Positions 1 through 3,941 of a stretch of DNA of 64,000 bases are shown here, piece after piece. The stretch is taken from positions 1 through 64,000 of the forward strand of contig CAWEYL010000002.1 in NCBI GenBank assembly GCA_963813335.1, in the 5' to 3' direction. Each line of letters begins with the position of its first letter. Position 1 is the stretch's first letter. This stretch comes from an uncultured Chloroflexia bacterium (GTDB lineage: Bacteria; Chloroflexota; Limnocylindria; Limnocylindrales; CSP1-4). Position numbers and translations under genes: made by a program. The notes beneath the pieces are model-generated. The model was not told the DNA's origin. It saw only the letters and a list, made by a program, of their open reading frames with translations, and did not search any database.

Positions 1-29
1 TGACCGGTTAGGTGCGGCGTCCCTATAGT
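1..29 (+). promoter_or_regulatory. sigma70-type promoter upstream of the riboswitch
   Basis: TATAGT at 24-29. TGACC at 1-5 would be a -35 box truncated by the window edge, 18 nt upstream. Confidence 0.55.
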
Positions 30-56
30 CCGGCCACTTCGTAGTACTCCGGTACT

Positions 57-146
57 AGGAAGCAATGTAAAGACGCTCGGACGCGCCGAAGCACCACCTG
101 AAATGGGCACTTAGGGTGGAGCGGAGCGAGTAGTGCAACCGACCGA
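57..146 (+). promoter_or_regulatory. c-di-GMP-II riboswitch
   Basis: GGAAGCAATG ... AAATGGGCACTT ... GAGCGAGTAGTGCAACCGACC matches the class II hallmark elements, including the GCAC/GTGC pseudoknot. It lies upstream of an HD-GYP gene. Confidence 0.9.
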
Positions 147-167
147 CCACGAGTCTGGTCGGTTTTC
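137..167 (+). terminator. intrinsic terminator (riboswitch expression platform)
   Basis: Stem ACCGACCA (142-149) / TGGTCGGT (156-163) followed by TTTC. It overlaps the 3' end of the aptamer (AACCGACC 137-144). Confidence 0.7.
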
Positions 168-206
168 GTGTTCCCAGAGCACGAGGGCCGCAAAGGAGGT
201 ACGAGC

Positions 207-260
207 GTGACTGCAGAGTCCGCCAAGGGCTGGACCCCCGTGTCCGCCAAGGGCTGGTAG
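207..260 (+). CDS. micro-ORF 1, 17 aa MTAESAKGWTPVSAKGW (two SAKGW units)
   Basis: Strong Shine-Dalgarno AAAGGAGGT (192-200) 6 nt before GTG 207; TAG at 258-260. Too short for the ORF track. Confidence 0.65.
   Translation: MTAESAKGWTPVSAKGW
218..257 (+). repeat. 16-nt direct repeat GTCCGCCAAGGGCTGG x2 (period 24 nt)
   Basis: Exact copies at 218-233 and 242-257, in frame within micro-ORF 1. Confidence 0.95.
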
Positions 261-271
261 GTAGCCCGGCC

Positions 272-361
272 GTGAAGGCCAAAGTTCTCCGGGTCATCGT
301 TACGCTCTCGAGCGTGGCGATGATCGCAGCCGCAGGTGGAGCTTCTCTGAGAGGCTTCTAG
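272..361 (+). CDS. micro-ORF 2, 29 aa MKAKVLRVIVTLSSVAMIAAAGGASLRGF, signal-peptide-like precursor
   Basis: GTG 272 to TAG 359-361, with AGGT upstream at 259-262. Basic N-region, hydrophobic core, AGGA, then a short tail SLRGF. Confidence 0.7.
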   Translation: MKAKVLRVIVTLSSVAMIAAAGGASLRGF

Positions 362-371
362 TACGTTGGTC

Positions 372-417
372 CCATTACCCCAGGGAACTCGGAGGGGATA
401 GAGTTCCGGGGTAGTGG
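372..417 (+). other. long intergenic stem-loop
   Basis: CCATTACCCC/GGGGTAGTGG plus GGAACTC/GAGTTCC, with loop GGAGGGGATA. No U-tract. Confidence 0.75.
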
Positions 418-437
418 ATCAGCGAACAAGGCAGTCG

Positions 438-1837
438 ATGCCGAAGTCCCTGAAGCTTTACATCGCTGGAGTCGTGGCTCTGAGCGCGATTGCGCTCGTG
501 GCTGCGACTCTTGTGATTCCAGTCGACCCGAAGATCGCCATCGCTATTCGACCGTCGGGAGCCCAACTGGAAACCAAGTGTCCTCGGGGTCGCGTTCTGG
601 ACCCTGCTGACCCTCCTTGGCTCAGCATTGCCCGTTCACCTGCCGCGCGGGACACAGCACGCGGTGGCAATTGCCCCGATCCTCGGGGTCGTGTTTCTTG
701 GCGGTCCAACGGTTGGGCTGTGGGTGGCTGCGATTGGCACGACTGAGGTGCGGGAGCTTCGGGGCCGAATCCCTTGGTACGGCACCCTCGCGAATCACGC
801 GGGTCTCGTCATTCCGGCCGTCGTCGCAGGTCTCGTTCGCCACGGCTCCTGTCCGTCGCGAATGACCCGCAGGCGACTTCATGGCGGCGATGGTCTCGGC
901 GGGCGTCTTCCTCGTGTTGAACCTGATGCTCGCTTCGATTCTGCTTGGCCTACGAACGGGGCAACGAGTCTCCGAGGTGACGATTGGCGACTTGAGGGGG
1001 ATCGCTGGAAGCTGGGTGGCGCTCGCGCCTCTCGCATGGTTGATGTCCACCATCTACTTGGTTCAGTGGTGGGCCACCGTCCTGTTCGCTATCCCCTTGT
1101 ACTCGACTCGATTCGCGTTCCAGGGGTTCGTCGAGATGCGCGAGATGTTCGAGCAGACCATCGGCGCGCTCGCCGAGGCCGTCGACAAGCGCGACCCTTA
1201 TACGTCGCTGCACAGCCATCGCGTCAAGGAGATCGCCGTCGACATCGGCCGGGTCATGCGCGTCAACGACGCCGAGCTGGAGGCCCTCAACTGGGGCGGC
1301 CTGCTCCATGACGTCGGCAAGATCGGCGTCCCTGACAACGTCCTGCTGAAGCAGGAGCGGCTCAACAGGGAAGAGCGGATGATCATGAATGCGCACCCCG
1401 TCCTGGGCGCACAGATCATCGCCCCGGTCACGAAGCTGGCCCCCGAGCTGCCGATCATCCGGCACCACCACGAGTGGTACAACGGCTCCGGCTACCCGGA
1501 TCGGCTCATCGGCGACGAGATCCCCAAGCTCGCGCGGGTCCTCCATGTCGCCGACGCCTTCGAGGCCATGACCGCCGCGCGCCCGTACCGCATGACGCCG
1601 CTGACGACCGAGCAGGCGCTCGCCGAGCTCCGCAAGTTCGCCGGCGTGCAGTTCGACCCGGTCGTGGTCGATGCGTTCGTCCGCACCCGCCACGTCGACG
1701 GCGTCCCCGATGCGGGACGGCGACCGGAGCCGCGGCAGATCCCGCTGATCGGTCAGGCCGCGGACACGATGACCGCGAGCGCCCGGACCGACGAACCGAC
1801 CACGGCCGCGGCGAAGGCCGCCCCAGAGCGGGTCTGA
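438..1837 (+). CDS. HD-GYP c-di-GMP phosphodiesterase with N-terminal multi-TM sensor domain (two apparent frameshifts, ~590 and ~860)
   Basis: LLHDVGKIG and HHHEWYNGSGYP motifs. The hydrophobic N-terminus is distributed over ORFs 414-746, 628-1311 and 881-1837 in three frames. Confidence 0.88.
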
Positions 1838-1946
1838 CTCCCCGGACCAGCCACACCGCCGCGCGACCGTGCCTGCGCGCGTCCATCCGGCGGCCGCATG
1901 ATTTGCCGGTGCAGCCACTCGACCGCCGTGCCCTGACGAGCCGCCC

Positions 1947-3941
1947 GTGCTGAGCATCGGGATCATCCTCGGCCTCGTCCTCGGCCTGCTCGCCGGCGGC
2001 AGCCTGCTCAACCTCGCGTCCGTTCGACTGCGCTGGGTCTCGCTGATCGCGGCAGCCGTCCTCATCCGCTTCGGGACGGAGGCGGCCCTCATCGCGGGGC
2101 TCCCGTTGGCCGAGACGCTCCGGGTGCCATTGCTCGCCGCCTCGTTCGGGATCCTGCTCGTCGGCTTGTGGGCCAACCGCTCCTACCCGGGCTTGACGCT
2201 CGCCTTCGTCGGCATCCTGTCCAATGGGCTGGTCATCGTCGTCAACGGCGGGTACATGCCGATCTGGGAGCCGAGCCTTGTCGCCGCCGGCCTGAGCCCA
2301 GCCGATGTCTCGCCGCAGATCCATACCCTGTACGGGCCGGAGCTGGGGCCGTTCCTCCTCCATCTCGGGCCGCTCGCCGACATCATCCCGATCCCGTTCC
2401 CACTGATCCAGAACGTGGCATCGATGGGCGACGTCTTCCTGACGGCCGGCCTTGCCCTGTTCCTGTTCGCGAGCGTCGTTCGCGTGCCGAGCGACCTCGA
2501 CGACGAGGAGGCGGCGCGCATCCGCTCGCGGCTCGGGGCGATCAATACGGGGGAGACGGGCCTGTCGCCCGCATTCGCCGAGGCGGCGGCGCTCGAGCGC
2601 CAGATCGTCGTGGGCAGTCGTCGCGGCGGTCTTGCCTCTCCTGCCCGCTCCACGATCCCGCTCGAACGGCCCGAGGTCGCGGCGCGCATCCGGCGGCACC
2701 CCTATGTCCGGCTGGCCCTCAACGGGTCGTTCTCGGCGCTGTGGGTCGGGCAGCTCATCTCGCTGTTCGGTGACCGGATCCACCAGTTCGCGCTCGCCGC
2801 GCTGGTCCTGGCAACGACCGGCTCGACCGTCGCGGCCGGGCTCTCGTTCTTCTTCGCCGCCCTGCCGAACCTGTTCCTGTCGCCGGTCGCCGGCACGTTC
2901 GTCGACCGCTGGGACCGCAAGGAAGTCCTGATCGTCAGCGACATCCTGCGCGCTGCCGTCGTCCTGCTGATCCCGATCGCGGCGATCACCAACGTCTTGC
3001 TGGTCTACCCGATGATCTTCGTGGTGACCTCGATCTCGATCTTCTTCCGGCCTGCGCGGGTCGCGATCCTGCCGCAGCTCGTGGAAGACGACGAGCTCGT
3101 GACGGCCAACTCGGCCCTGTGGGTCGGCGAGACCATCGCCGATGTCCTGAGCTTCCCGGTGGCCGGCCTGTTCGTCGCGTTCCTCGCCAATGCCCTGCCG
3201 CTCGCGTTCTGGCTCGACGCCGTGACCTACCTGGCCTCCGCGGTGCTGCTCGGGACGATCGTGGTCCGACCCGCAGCGGCCCGCGGCGTCGACGCCGAGG
3301 CGACGGCCACCGACCCCGCGCAGCTGACGACCGGGTTCGTGGCGGAGCTCAAGGCGGGCTGGCGGTTCCTGCGCGGCGACACGACGCTGCTGGCCAACAC
3401 GATCCAGGCCGCGATCGCCCAGGTCGCGGTCGGCGTGCTGCTGGCGATCACCTCTGTCTGGGCCCTCCAGGTCTTCAGCGGCGCGAGCATCGGCTGGGAA
3501 GGTGCCTGGGGCATGGTCGAGGCGGGCTCGGCGGCGGGGAACATCCTCGGCGGTCTCGCGATCGGGCTCGTCGGGGCGCGCGTGCTGAAGGGCCGGCTGA
3601 TCATCGCCGGCTATGCGGTCTGGGGCTTCCTCACGATCCTGCTGGCGATGTCCAACGACCTCCCGCTCGCCGTGGGGATCTCGTTCGGAGCCGGGATCGC
3701 GAACATGGCCTTCATCATCCCGAGCCAGGCGCTCTTCCAGCAGCGCACGCCGGCCAACCTGATGGGCCGGGTGGTGAGCTTCCGGTTCGCGCTGGTCTTC
3801 GGGTCCATGACGCTGGCGATGGGGGTCGGGTCGATCATGACCGCGTTCGTGCCGGCGGCGACGGTGATCGCGCTGGGCGGGTTCGTCGCGATGGTCGCCG
3901 GCCTGTCCGGGCTGTTCGTGCCGGCCCTCCGCGACGCGTGA
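1947..3941 (+). CDS. DUF5317-like membrane domain fused to an MFS transporter
   Basis: N-terminal motifs NGLVIVVNGGYMP and LADIIP...SMGD. C-terminal multi-TM MFS with GQLISLFGD and motif A GTFVDRWDRK. Confidence 0.8.
   Translation: MLSIGIILGLVLGLLAGGSLLNLASVRLRWVSLIAAAVLIRFGTEAALIAGLPLAETLRVPLLAASFGILLVGLWANRSYPGLTLAFVGILSNGLVIVVNGGYMPIWEPSLVAAGLSPADVSPQIHTLYGPELGPFLLHLGPLADIIPIPFPLIQNVASMGDVFLTAGLALFLFASVVRVPSDLDDEEAARIRSRLGAINTGETGLSPAFAEAAALERQIVVGSRRGGLASPARSTIPLERPEVAARIRRHPYVRLALNGSFSALWVGQLISLFGDRIHQFALAALVLATTGSTVAAGLSFFFAALPNLFLSPVAGTFVDRWDRKEVLIVSDILRAAVVLLIPIAAITNVLLVYPMIFVVTSISIFFRPARVAILPQLVEDDELVTANSALWVGETIADVLSFPVAGLFVAFLANALPLAFWLDAVTYLASAVLLGTIVVRPAAARGVDAEATATDPAQLTTGFVAELKAGWRFLRGDTTLLANTIQAAIAQVAVGVLLAITSVWALQVFSGASIGWEGAWGMVEAGSAAGNILGGLAIGLVGARVLKGRLIIAGYAVWGFLTILLAMSNDLPLAVGISFGAGIANMAFIIPSQALFQQRTPANLMGRVVSFRFALVFGSMTLAMGVGSIMTAFVPAATVIALGGFVAMVAGLSGLFVPALRDA

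Follow-up and report, generated by a model that had tools for sequence, protein, structure and literature searches.

A conserved micro-ORF between a predicted c-di-GMP-II riboswitch and a MASE9-HD-GYP phosphodiesterase gene in Limnocylindria

Results

Anatomy of micro-ORF 1

We analysed the first 64,000 nt (forward strand) of contig CAWEYL010000002.1 from an uncultured Chloroflexia bacterium of the class Limnocylindria (GenBank assembly GCA_963813335.1), hereafter called the window. The subject is a very short open reading frame (ORF) at its beginning, micro-ORF 1 (ORF 1), which lies behind a predicted class II cyclic di-GMP (c-di-GMP-II) riboswitch and in front of a second small ORF (ORF 2), a gene for a c-di-GMP phosphodiesterase and a gene for a major facilitator superfamily (MFS) transporter. 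All features described at this locus are on the plus strand. By direct reading, the Shine-Dalgarno (SD) sequence AAAGGAGGT is at 192-200 (GGAGG at 195-199), 7 nt 5' of the start codon. ORF 1 (207-260) begins with GTG at 207-209, has 17 sense codons (MTAESAKGWTPVSAKGW) and ends with TAG at 258-260. An earlier sequence-only reading of the same DNA had described a 17-codon ORF with near-ideal spacing of the ribosome-binding site (RBS) and an exact 16-nt repeat, all of which was confirmed by direct reading and a repeat search; the next ORF (272-361) also matches the description given there.

The repeat is part of an in-frame 24-nt tandem duplication (209-232 and 233-256, 83% identity in the repeat search), which doubles the last eight codons of ORF 1 and keeps the frame. 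The exact 16-mer GTCCGCCAAGGGCTGG occurs in it twice (218-233 and 242-257), and at this fixed spacing a chance origin in 64 kb is not expected. The 12-mer AAGGGCTGGTAG, with at most one mismatch allowed, occurs once in the window (249-260), compared with 0.05 matches expected from shuffled sequences. The ORF listing gives the frame of ORF 1 from a GTG further upstream, at 168. We also considered a longer in-frame ORF starting from a GTG inside the riboswitch aptamer (MQPTD...) and rejected it; it is without an RBS, and its frame is open in many of the related loci and closed in others.

The two-copy form of this genome, for which a 'multicore' signal was proposed earlier, is an exception among relatives, where the norm is a single copy of 8-10 codons. 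We found the 17-residue duplicated allele at three loci, namely the window, L003 (MTAESAKAWTASSAKAW) and L018 (MTAESVKGWLPESAKGW), and the same 8-codon duplication, without gaps, in an RNA contig from an unrelated study (X2 record 13). In all three species with the duplicated allele the motif S-[A/V]-K-[G/A]-W is retained in both copies, and copy 1 has synonymous Ala codons (GCA, GCC and GCT). The three alleles also have the derived peptide start T-A-E in common. In a gene tree of the HD-GYP phosphodiesterase (110 loci), the window is sister to the single-copy locus L074 (MNPESVKGW), and L003 and L018 form a sister pair within the clade next to it. One old duplication followed by later loss and two to three separate duplications are both possible on this tree. 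A pattern search for further single-length copies of ORF 1 in the genome, with a pattern that cannot match the duplicated allele, found none.

Promoter, riboswitch and leader RNA

A c-di-GMP-II riboswitch and a terminator lie directly upstream of ORF 1; they were absent from the sequence-only reading and define the unit. The aptamer (Rfam RF01786) occupies 70-153 and scored 62.1 bits (gathering score 53.5, E=9.3e-13, model positions 1-84 of 84). It is the sole copy in this 2.54-Mb, 7-contig, 81%-complete genome. It is followed by an intrinsic-terminator-like element at 141-170, consisting of a hairpin (141-164; 9 pairs, 5 of them G-C) and a T-run (TTCGTGTT). The terminator stem is kept in 46/46 aligned sequences. 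According to the Rfam alignment, the 5' arm of the terminator (143-148) doubles as the 3' strand of aptamer helix P1, giving an expression platform that competes with an aptamer helix; therefore, P1 stabilized by its ligand should prevent termination. We infer that the predicted riboswitch works as an ON switch.

A second hairpin (GGUUUUCGUG...CACGAGGGCC, 161-189) overlaps the 3' arm of the terminator and ends just 5' of the SD sequence. RNAalifold, applied to the 46 sequences, found changes on both sides in 6 of the 17 predicted pairs of this hairpin. In the same analysis the terminator and the second hairpin were the only consensus structures, and none was predicted over or just after ORF 1. 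An Rfam search of window positions 1-3000 with E up to 1 revealed no further RNA family besides a chance match to a long non-coding RNA, and a search for tRNA and transfer-messenger RNA genes found none.

Upstream of the aptamer, a predicted promoter (1-29) has its -10 box TATAGT at 24-29 and a -35 box, (T)TGACC (1-5), that is cut by the start of the contig. A promoter consensus scan of the window found none because of this cut. In an upstream alignment by eye of approximately 47 related loci, the sequence CGTATTGACC, a spacing of ~17 nt and TA(T/G/A/C)AGT are conserved. The contigs of two genomes of the same genus (G025 and G068) also begin 60-72 nt before their riboswitch. Nearly all loci of the upstream alignment furthermore share the palindrome TAGTAC-N4-GTACTA (42-57), which may fold into a stem-loop near the 5' end of the transcript or serve as an operator. 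The word TAGTAC recurs at the stop codon of ORF 2 (TAGTACG, 359-365), and both sites are conserved across genera; they may represent a shared operator or RNA motif.

At four loci of the same genus (L027-L030) we observed weaker c-di-GMP-II matches of 40-50 bits, below the cut-off and with a distinct consensus. These matches adjoin, on the 5' side, genes for small secreted proteins with signal peptides and occur in several copies per genome (up to 13 in one genome). They may represent a variant riboswitch class or specificity.

Distribution among relatives

Relatives with the locus belong to the class Limnocylindria of the Chloroflexota, and many of them are few-contig metagenome-assembled genomes from soil. 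RF01786 was detected in 27/36 congeneric genomes and in 0/24 genomes of a sister family with small genomes. In an even draw of genomes across the class, which takes in the two unpublished genomes G175 and G150 (used in this tally alone), the riboswitch was present in 39/44 genomes of family f1 and 39/50 of f4 and in none of f2 (0/6), f3 (0/49) and f5 (0/1).

ORF 1 normally has 8-10 codons in a single copy with the consensus MxP[E/D]xxxKG[W/F]. Among the readable congeneric loci, a count that leaves out the N-masked L020, 21 of 25 have (A/G)AGGAGG and, 5-7 nt further on, a GTG or ATG whose frame ends in K-[G/A]-[W/Y]-stop. Typical products in the genus have 9-10 residues, for example MAPESAKGW, MSPEMIAKGW and MNPETQNKGW. 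In other genera of the window's family the peptide ends with KGF, KSW or KPW. In family f4 (MARKVIKGW, MSREIIKSW, MARQSVKGW, MSRENFKGW and M[R/K]EFTKGW) the N-terminus differs and the tail is the same. An RBS and a start codon at working distance are thus a feature of the congeneric loci and of the other genera alike.

We also scanned the genomes of 185,579 species with the DNA of the ORF 2 tail alone, a search that is blind to the riboswitch and to ORF 1. At least 118 stretches matched; among the matches listed (80), 79 were from Chloroflexota, and 76 had the aptamer core word within 330 nt upstream, a few of these word matches falling inside ORF 1. An SD-led ORF 1 was called in 62 of the 80. 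At least five of the 18 uncalled loci (L064, L100, L108, L137 and L141) do have ORF 1 by inspection.

Evidence for coding

At 123 loci we determined how far the SD-proximal start lies from the word that encodes K/R-x-aromatic-stop, which was located in any frame. Ten loci were missed by the regular expression, some of which are in-frame KSW alleles. At 101 of the other 113 loci the distance kept the frame, with 24 nt at three loci, 27 nt at 21, 30 nt at 74 and 51 nt at three. The sequence-only reading had named a frame not conserved in relatives as the result that would speak against a coding function; the frame is conserved.

Codon usage was tallied in 67 unique 10-codon ORF 1 sequences. Pro at codon 3 (58/67) is encoded by CCG (27), CCC (24), CCT (5) and CCA (2), and the acidic codon 4 varies synonymously as well (GAA 17, GAG 15, GAT 12, GAC 4). 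Lys is present in 67/67 sequences and Gly in 58/67 (GGC 50, GGT 7, GGA 1). The last residue is W in 48 sequences, F in 16 and Y in three; two bases must change to turn TGG into TTC or TAC, and the residue stays aromatic.

Selection was estimated by Nei-Gojobori counts over 40 phylogenetically independent sister pairs as the ratio of non-synonymous to synonymous differences (pN/pS). The ratio was 0.60 in the frame of ORF 1 compared with 1.39 and 1.31 in the other frames. We then dropped the start codon, the stop codon and the last three sense codons, the latter being those used to find the ORF; the ratio in frame was 0.68 (bootstrap 0.54-0.87) compared with 1.08 and 1.49. Codons 3-4 alone gave 0.37. 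The orthologue comparison proposed with the sequence-only reading, for changes biased towards synonymous sites, thus came out in favour of coding, with Pro and Glu/Asp codons that vary synonymously and a ratio below one in the ORF frame only. The same frame-specific purifying selection contradicts the idea that ORF 1 is the decayed remnant of an earlier precursor. Taken together, ORF 1 has the conserved RBS and start, the kept frame and the frame-specific purifying selection of a micropeptide gene.

Presence in RNA libraries

Seven metatranscriptome runs from four studies contain small shares of the stretch (word shares 0.05-0.06, too low to point to a habitat), and contigs of four of the runs cover 52-542, from the riboswitch through ORF 1 and ORF 2. 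These RNA-library contigs show presence and say nothing about transcript ends or levels. Two of them bridge the terminator (X2 record 10, 120-233; X7 record 27, 143-292). Among the Illumina contigs without gaps, X2 record 13 (186-259) covers ORF 1, and X2 record 14 (193-292, two substitutions), X1 record 5 (202-376) and X3 record 22 (180-345) extend over ORF 1 and ORF 2. No indels are listed between 180 and 512 in the RNA contigs. An indel that hides a longer ORF, for which a check against raw reads had been suggested, is therefore unlikely given these gapless independent contigs. In each of the four runs, the bins over the riboswitch (65-192) have a much greater summed contig depth than 193-448. 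This contrast would fit premature termination; we did not use it as evidence, because contig depths cannot rank parts of a locus and the conserved aptamer attracts contigs of relatives.

ORF 2 and the likeness of the two tails

ORF 2 (272-361; MKAKVLRVIVTLSSVAMIAAAGGASLRGF) encodes 29 aa, in which a basic N-terminus is followed by a single hydrophobic helix and the tail reads AGGASLRGF. A length of 29 aa was found in 85 of 89 distinct ORF 1/ORF 2 pairs, with the consensus MKxRLxRxxxxLSxVAAIALAGGASL[K/R]GF. The pN/pS ratio over 41 pairs is 0.30 in frame compared with 1.33 and 2.08 out of frame, and 9 of the 12 variable sites listed in ORF 2 in the RNA contigs are third codon positions. Exact ORF 2 sequences are on record for four of six relatives, three of them as 'hypothetical protein' and one without a name. 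At L010/L108 (genome G004, a short-read assembly) ORF 2 has an in-frame TAG at the position of the relatives' Ser codon (TCG/TCA), with ORF 1 intact; this is either a nonsense mutation or a sequencing error.

The likeness between the ORF 1 end (K-G-W/F) and the ORF 2 end ([K/R]-G-F/W), pointed out earlier for the window, turned out to be a conserved feature in two families. In Limnocylindria, ORF 1 tails with KGF were paired with ORF 2 tails [K/Q/N/R]G[F/L] in 17 of 17 cases, and in family f4 the ORF 1 tail KGW occurs with ORF 2 tails [K/R]GW or RGL.

Downstream genes and neighbourhood

The next gene (438-1837) encodes a MASE9-HD-GYP c-di-GMP phosphodiesterase (HD_5, E=2.4e-38; located by tblastn with an intact orthologue). 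MASE9 was matched in 44/61 N-termini of orthologous HD-GYP proteins, with 29-32 bits in family f4. MASE9 has no known ligand, and a binding site for it within the membrane has been proposed, according to the available text of an HD-GYP survey (bioRxiv 10.1101/2021.11.05.467447). A predicted complex of MASE9 (residues 1-240) with the 32-aa ORF 2 product of f4 had a score of 0.29 against a mark of 0.32 and speaks neither for nor against an interaction. The phosphodiesterase gene is followed by one for DUF5317 fused to an MFS_3/DHA3-type efflux transporter (1947-3941; Pfam DUF5317, E=1.4e-22, with MFS_1 and MFS_3). The f4 orthologue of this transporter scored 203.7 bits with NCBIfam TIGR00900, below the family cut-off.

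The neighbours examined encode a Trans_reg_C/BTAD regulator, which lies upstream in both families, the HD-GYP protein, DUF5317-MFS, PIG-L, GT87 and DnaB. Among these neighbours there was no radical-SAM, ATP-grasp, YcaO or lanthipeptide-type enzyme. In one related genome the DnaB helicase gene, a few kb upstream (L061 89-2626), carries an intein with a LAGLIDADG domain.

An SD-led ORF of 8-10 codons at the head of an operon that ends in an MFS gene resembles the leaders of drug-inducible systems, for which leader ORFs of this length are typical. The MFS protein is also related, below family cut-offs, to Mef(A), Tet(V) and Tap. Nevertheless, we consider it very improbable that ORF 1 is a drug- or metabolite-sensing leader of the erm/cat/mef type that induces the downstream DHA3-type pump. 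The MFS gene lies 1.7 kb downstream, with ORF 2 and the HD-GYP gene in between, folding of the aligned sequences showed no attenuator across ORF 1, the unit already contains a c-di-GMP switch, and the ORF 1 tail co-varies with the ORF 2 tail.

A parallel in other Chloroflexota

For MASE9 genes in other Chloroflexota families, no Rfam riboswitch was found. At four of seven of those loci a basic-hydrophobic peptide of 24-33 aa is encoded upstream (for example MKWLVVRILAALSFVLGLLMAVGAGQKWF). In f28, which belongs to another order, five of seven loci have an SD-led ORF of 8-9 codons (MLTWNWTW, MLSWNYSW, MLSLNWSL, MLTLNWQF and MTFSLSFSW). At three of the five, the next ORF encodes a membrane peptide of 24 aa that ends like the micro-ORF product (NWSL/NWSL, WQF/LSF and FSW/VSW). 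For two of these three (L198 and L200) the protein encoded downstream was scanned and proved to be one MASE9-HD_5-MFS_3 fusion of >726 aa. Such fusions indicate that phosphodiesterase and exporter belong together, and the link to the MFS transporter drawn in the sequence-only reading is reinforced by their occurrence in another order. In the available text of the HD-GYP survey, the MASE9-HD-GYP-MFS fusion is not among the MASE9 architectures named (bioRxiv 10.1101/2021.11.05.467447).

Directly 5' of MASE9 genes at two f28 loci (L196 2190-3416, minus strand, and L199) there are genes for S8 subtilisin-like proteases that end in approximately 20 tandem SWNS[A/T] units. The downstream MASE9 protein of L196, when scanned, was MASE9-HD-GYP-PAS-GGDEF. 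The repeat resembles the 8-aa micro-ORFs (MLTWNWTW etc.) found at the same position in sister genomes.

A Trp-sensing attenuator leader, as suggested in the sequence-only reading, or a multi-core precursor of a ribosomally synthesized and post-translationally modified peptide (RiPP) that is modified by enzymes encoded elsewhere would make sense of the two TGG codons in the window allele, the repeated core and the adjacent exporter, and the protease with its (SWNSx)n tail that precedes MASE9 genes in another order could be read in the same way. We regard both as barely credible. The last residue is F or Y instead of W in 19/67 sequences, and in most species the ORF contains just one aromatic codon. 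Nor is an attenuator structure predicted across the ORF, whose terminator is in front of it and not behind it, and there are no tryptophan genes nearby. An amino-acid attenuator of the trpL type was thus rejected, as neither conserved regulatory codons nor an overlapping or following terminator-antiterminator was found. The multi-core RiPP was rejected likewise. The usual form of 8-10 residues leaves no leader region in front of a core, no RiPP-type modifying enzyme is encoded among the neighbours examined, and the duplication occurs at three loci only. Trp sensing and a classical RiPP are contradicted by these observations.

Geometry of the ORF 1-ORF 2-HD-GYP relay

In the window, ORF 2 starts 11 nt past the ORF 1 stop codon and is without an SD sequence of its own. 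At 86 distinct loci this gap measures 2-33 nt. Among the 38 loci whose gap is at most 13 nt, 23 show no SD-like word in front of ORF 2; such a word is present at 34 of the 48 loci with a wider gap (at least 14 nt). A first stop codon close to the next start and a second cistron without a strong RBS are the arrangement expected for reinitiation.

ORF 2 and the HD-GYP gene are separated by a long hairpin (361-427), which extends from the last base of the ORF 2 stop codon (UAG|UACG...) to just before the HD-GYP RBS (minimum free energy -44.6 kcal/mol, z=-4.96). Outer pairs of 353-359 with 429-436 would cover the RBS. The hairpin architecture was found in five of five single folds (z=-5.0, -4.5, -3.8, -1.3 and -2.8), and in two of the five the last codons of ORF 2 pair with the HD-GYP RBS. 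RNAalifold applied to a MAFFT alignment of the ORF 2-HD-GYP spacer predicted no consensus structure. The sequence blocks TAGTACG, CCATTACC, TAGAGT and CGTACGAGGCA of the spacer are conserved in relatives. The spacer also contains promoter-like boxes (TTACCC at 375-380 and TAGAGT at 399-404, with 18 nt between them), and the HD-GYP gene may therefore also have a promoter of its own. The hairpin region (361-436) may be a translational coupling device, an internal promoter or both.

This geometry would suit a purely cis-acting upstream ORF (uORF), which is translated into a free peptide without a role and either loads ribosomes for reinitiation at ORF 2 or stalls them at its stop codon through the K-G-aromatic end, thereby setting the translation of ORF 2 and, via the hairpin, of the HD-GYP gene. 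The strong SD sequence, the gaps of 2-33 nt, the short-gap loci without an SD-like word and the possible pairing of the ORF 2 end with the HD-GYP RBS are all consistent with such a function. Stop codons of the release factor 1 type (TAG and TAA) end 64/67 ORF 1 sequences, whereas of 43 long ORFs in the window 15 end with TAG and none with TAA. The duplication leaves the last eight residues the same and would be neutral for a nascent-chain mechanism. There is a precedent in riboswitch-controlled uORFs of Mycobacterium tuberculosis, in which, as described, downstream translation depends on termination and reinitiation (PMC11260477). Ribosome loading alone, however, fails to explain the selection on Pro3 and Glu/Asp4 (pN/pS 0.37). 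A stall motif read by the ribosome tunnel should be uniform, yet the tails differ (KGW, KGF, NWSL and FSW) and track the tail of the membrane peptide, and ORF 2 has its own SD-like word in many genera (the 34 of 48 long-gap loci). We hold a purely cis-acting role to be rather unlikely, yet it is a serious rival. The geometry supports a translational relay and a peptide with a partner equally, and the two are not mutually exclusive.

Discussion

In this study we describe a micro-ORF at the head of an operon in Limnocylindria. The anatomy of the locus, its conservation, the frame-specific selection on ORF 1 and the presence of the stretch in RNA libraries are consistent with a real, translated and riboswitch-gated micro-cistron, which we consider very probable. 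Beyond that, the reading we favour is that ORF 1 is a translated micropeptide gene, the first cistron of a c-di-GMP-gated operon, whose product acts jointly with the membrane peptide, the exporter and the MASE9 sensor; we hold the chances of this to be even.

The order of the elements in the proposed operon is promoter, 5' hairpin, aptamer, terminator, strong SD sequence, ORF 1, ORF 2, MASE9-HD-GYP gene and DUF5317-MFS gene. At high c-di-GMP concentration, stabilization of P1 would remove the 5' arm of the terminator and transcription would read through. Ribosomes would load at the strong SD sequence, translate ORF 1 and terminate 2-33 nt before the start of ORF 2, and termination would hand them over to ORF 2, which in this genus is mostly without an SD sequence of its own. 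More speculatively, the ORF 1 peptide may copy, in soluble form, the short tail that the membrane peptide exposes. The two peptides might act on the MASE9 sensor, the ORF 1 product possibly after export by the MFS transporter, and the outcome might be a tuned breakdown of c-di-GMP that closes a feedback loop.

The tails vary by lineage and yet track the neighbouring membrane peptide, which argues for a lineage-specific protein partner and not for the ribosome tunnel, which is universal. The candidate that suggests itself as this partner is the MASE9 sensor, and the linked MFS transporter would be the export route. To our knowledge, a MASE9 membrane domain of a phosphodiesterase acting as a peptide receptor is unprecedented.

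Several observations weigh against a peptide that acts with these partners. At 12 of 113 loci the start-to-stop distance is out of frame (29 nt at two loci, 31 nt at six and 32 nt at four). One of the 12 is a start mis-call (L118), and most of the remaining ones are from long-read, few-contig assemblies in which ORF 2 is also broken; L097 is not obviously of this type and may be a real exception. With pN/pS of 0.6-0.7 the constraint on ORF 1 is only moderate, and codons 5-7 are free. The terminal codons are conserved as nucleotides (AAG in 65/67, GGC in 50/58, and a strong bias towards C at the third base of codon 7), and the stop codon is TAG in 57/67 ORF 1 sequences compared with 15 of the 43 long ORFs of the window with high G+C content at third codon positions, 28 of which end with TGA. 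In family f4 a GGGCUGG/CCAGCCC hairpin encloses the stop codon, the KGW codons being paired with a CCAGCCC word directly 3' of it. Constraint at the RNA level therefore coexists with the coding signal, and an RNA-level role could coexist with the role of the peptide or partly replace it. Most often, an ORF 1 tail ending in W is combined with an ORF 2 tail ending in F (66 of the 89 distinct pairs), and the two tails are therefore alike rather than identical. According to the positive-inside rule the ORF 2 tail should be outside, whereas the ORF 1 product is made in the cytoplasm, so mimicry of the tail needs export. Translation of ORF 1, the ON logic of the riboswitch and the target of the peptide are, moreover, all inferred.

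The state of the locus in this genome belongs to the same side of the balance. The HD-GYP gene of the window aligns in three frames (393-542, 559-846 and 944-1804) with two frame breaks; similar breaks occur in related few-contig assemblies, and sequencing indels are therefore the likely cause, gene decay being possible as well. The window is the start of contig C2, whose first bases are part of the -35 box. The flank that matches further upstream, as far as GTATTGAC, is on contig C7 (75295-75317; L201 1495-1525), which continues at the -35 box with other sequence, namely an unrelated winged-helix regulator gene. The break between C7 and C2 at the promoter is either an assembly break or chimera or a real rearrangement, and the locus may be damaged or misassembled in this genome.

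Taken to its end, constraint at the nucleotide level would mean that ORF 1 is untranslated, the block CAAGGGCTGGTAG and its duplicate being an RNA or DNA element (a binding site for a protein or small RNA, or an operator) in a frame that is open by chance. The highly conserved third positions of the last codons, the strong preference for TAG and the f4 hairpin at the stop are compatible with this. So are the related block AAGGGCTTCTAG at the end of ORF 2 and, at L198 in f28, the 15 bases that are identical between the end of the micro-ORF and that of the membrane-peptide ORF. Yet the length of ORF 1 changes in multiples of three at 101 of 113 loci, and the replacement of TGG by TTC or TAC keeps an aromatic residue. 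The Pro and Glu/Asp codons vary synonymously, pN/pS is below one in the ORF frame only, and a strong SD sequence and start are conserved at fixed spacing in front of an ORF over which no consensus structure is predicted. We consider an untranslated element improbable.

A bolder form of the micropeptide proposal is doubtful in our view and is given here as a speculation. ORF 1 and the 29-aa membrane peptide might be a co-evolving cognate ligand pair for the orphan MASE9 sensor, the membrane peptide as a tethered intramembrane partner and the peptide of 8-10 residues as a free copy of its tail, exported by the MFS transporter and sensed outside. The operon would then encode a c-di-GMP-gated cell-cell or autocrine signal with c-di-GMP hydrolysis instead of phosphorylation as its output, and the number of core copies could expand (two in this genome, (SWNSx)n elsewhere).

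Genes of 8-10 codons escape annotation, and ORF 1 is conserved across a class of abundant uncultured Chloroflexota from soil and freshwater. It lies under a predicted second-messenger riboswitch and is tied to a phosphodiesterase whose MASE9 sensor has no known ligand. If the peptides do act on the sensor or the exporter, c-di-GMP riboswitches control micropeptide effectors outside Firmicutes, and MASE9 gains its first candidate ligands, directly testable with synthetic peptides and heterologously produced enzyme. If ORF 1 is merely a cis-acting uORF, the locus is a clean natural example of a transcriptional riboswitch that feeds a translational relay of three cistrons.

Searches of the literature, covering the main texts of papers, gave no report of this module in Chloroflexota, of DUF5317 or of MASE9-linked peptides, and none of c-di-GMP in Limnocylindria or of a c-di-GMP riboswitch combined with HD-GYP in Chloroflexi. 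Among known systems, microcin C (MccA of 7 aa, with the MFS protein MccC), ComS/XIP and the Phr pentapeptides are encoded by tiny SD-led genes of 7-17 codons, have their active part at the C-terminal end and are adjacent to an exporter. Pro-peptides of the Phr type, with a signal-like helix and a short active C-terminal tail, resemble ORF 2. In contrast to all of these, the neighbours examined here encode no adenylyltransferase of the MccB type and no RRNPP or ComR receptor. The 14-aa leader peptide peTrpL is likewise very short, acts in trans as a free peptide and is tied to the regulation of an efflux pump, as far as described (PMC7298713); unlike ORF 1, which is no amino-acid attenuator and differs in motif and context, it derives from a Trp attenuator.

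The CD1980.2 family of Clostridioides difficile, described in 2026, consists of small proteins of 58 aa under class I c-di-GMP riboswitches that are repressed by c-di-GMP, and the available text reports no homologues outside C. difficile (PMC13724677). In both cases, unannotated small ORFs with an RBS are situated directly behind c-di-GMP riboswitches with premature termination, and the CD1980.2 products are associated with the membrane, as is predicted for the ORF 2 product (PMC13724677). Going by that description, CD1980.2, a four-helix protein, is set apart from the peptides of the window by its size and by the riboswitch class. In our case the riboswitch is of class II and would be an ON switch, the cistrons have 8-17 codons and encode 29 aa, respectively, the phylum is another one, and the unit is linked to MASE9-HD-GYP and MFS genes.

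The uORFs of metE and ppe2 in M. tuberculosis are short translated ORFs in riboswitch leaders on which, by reinitiation, a downstream gene depends, and their geometry matches that of ORF 1 and ORF 2, with the 11-nt gap of the window (PMC11260477). They differ in that they belong to B12 riboswitches that act as translational OFF switches, and the available text describes no peptide motif shared with the next gene (PMC11260477). In contrast to these uORFs, the sequence of the ORF 1 peptide is itself under selection.

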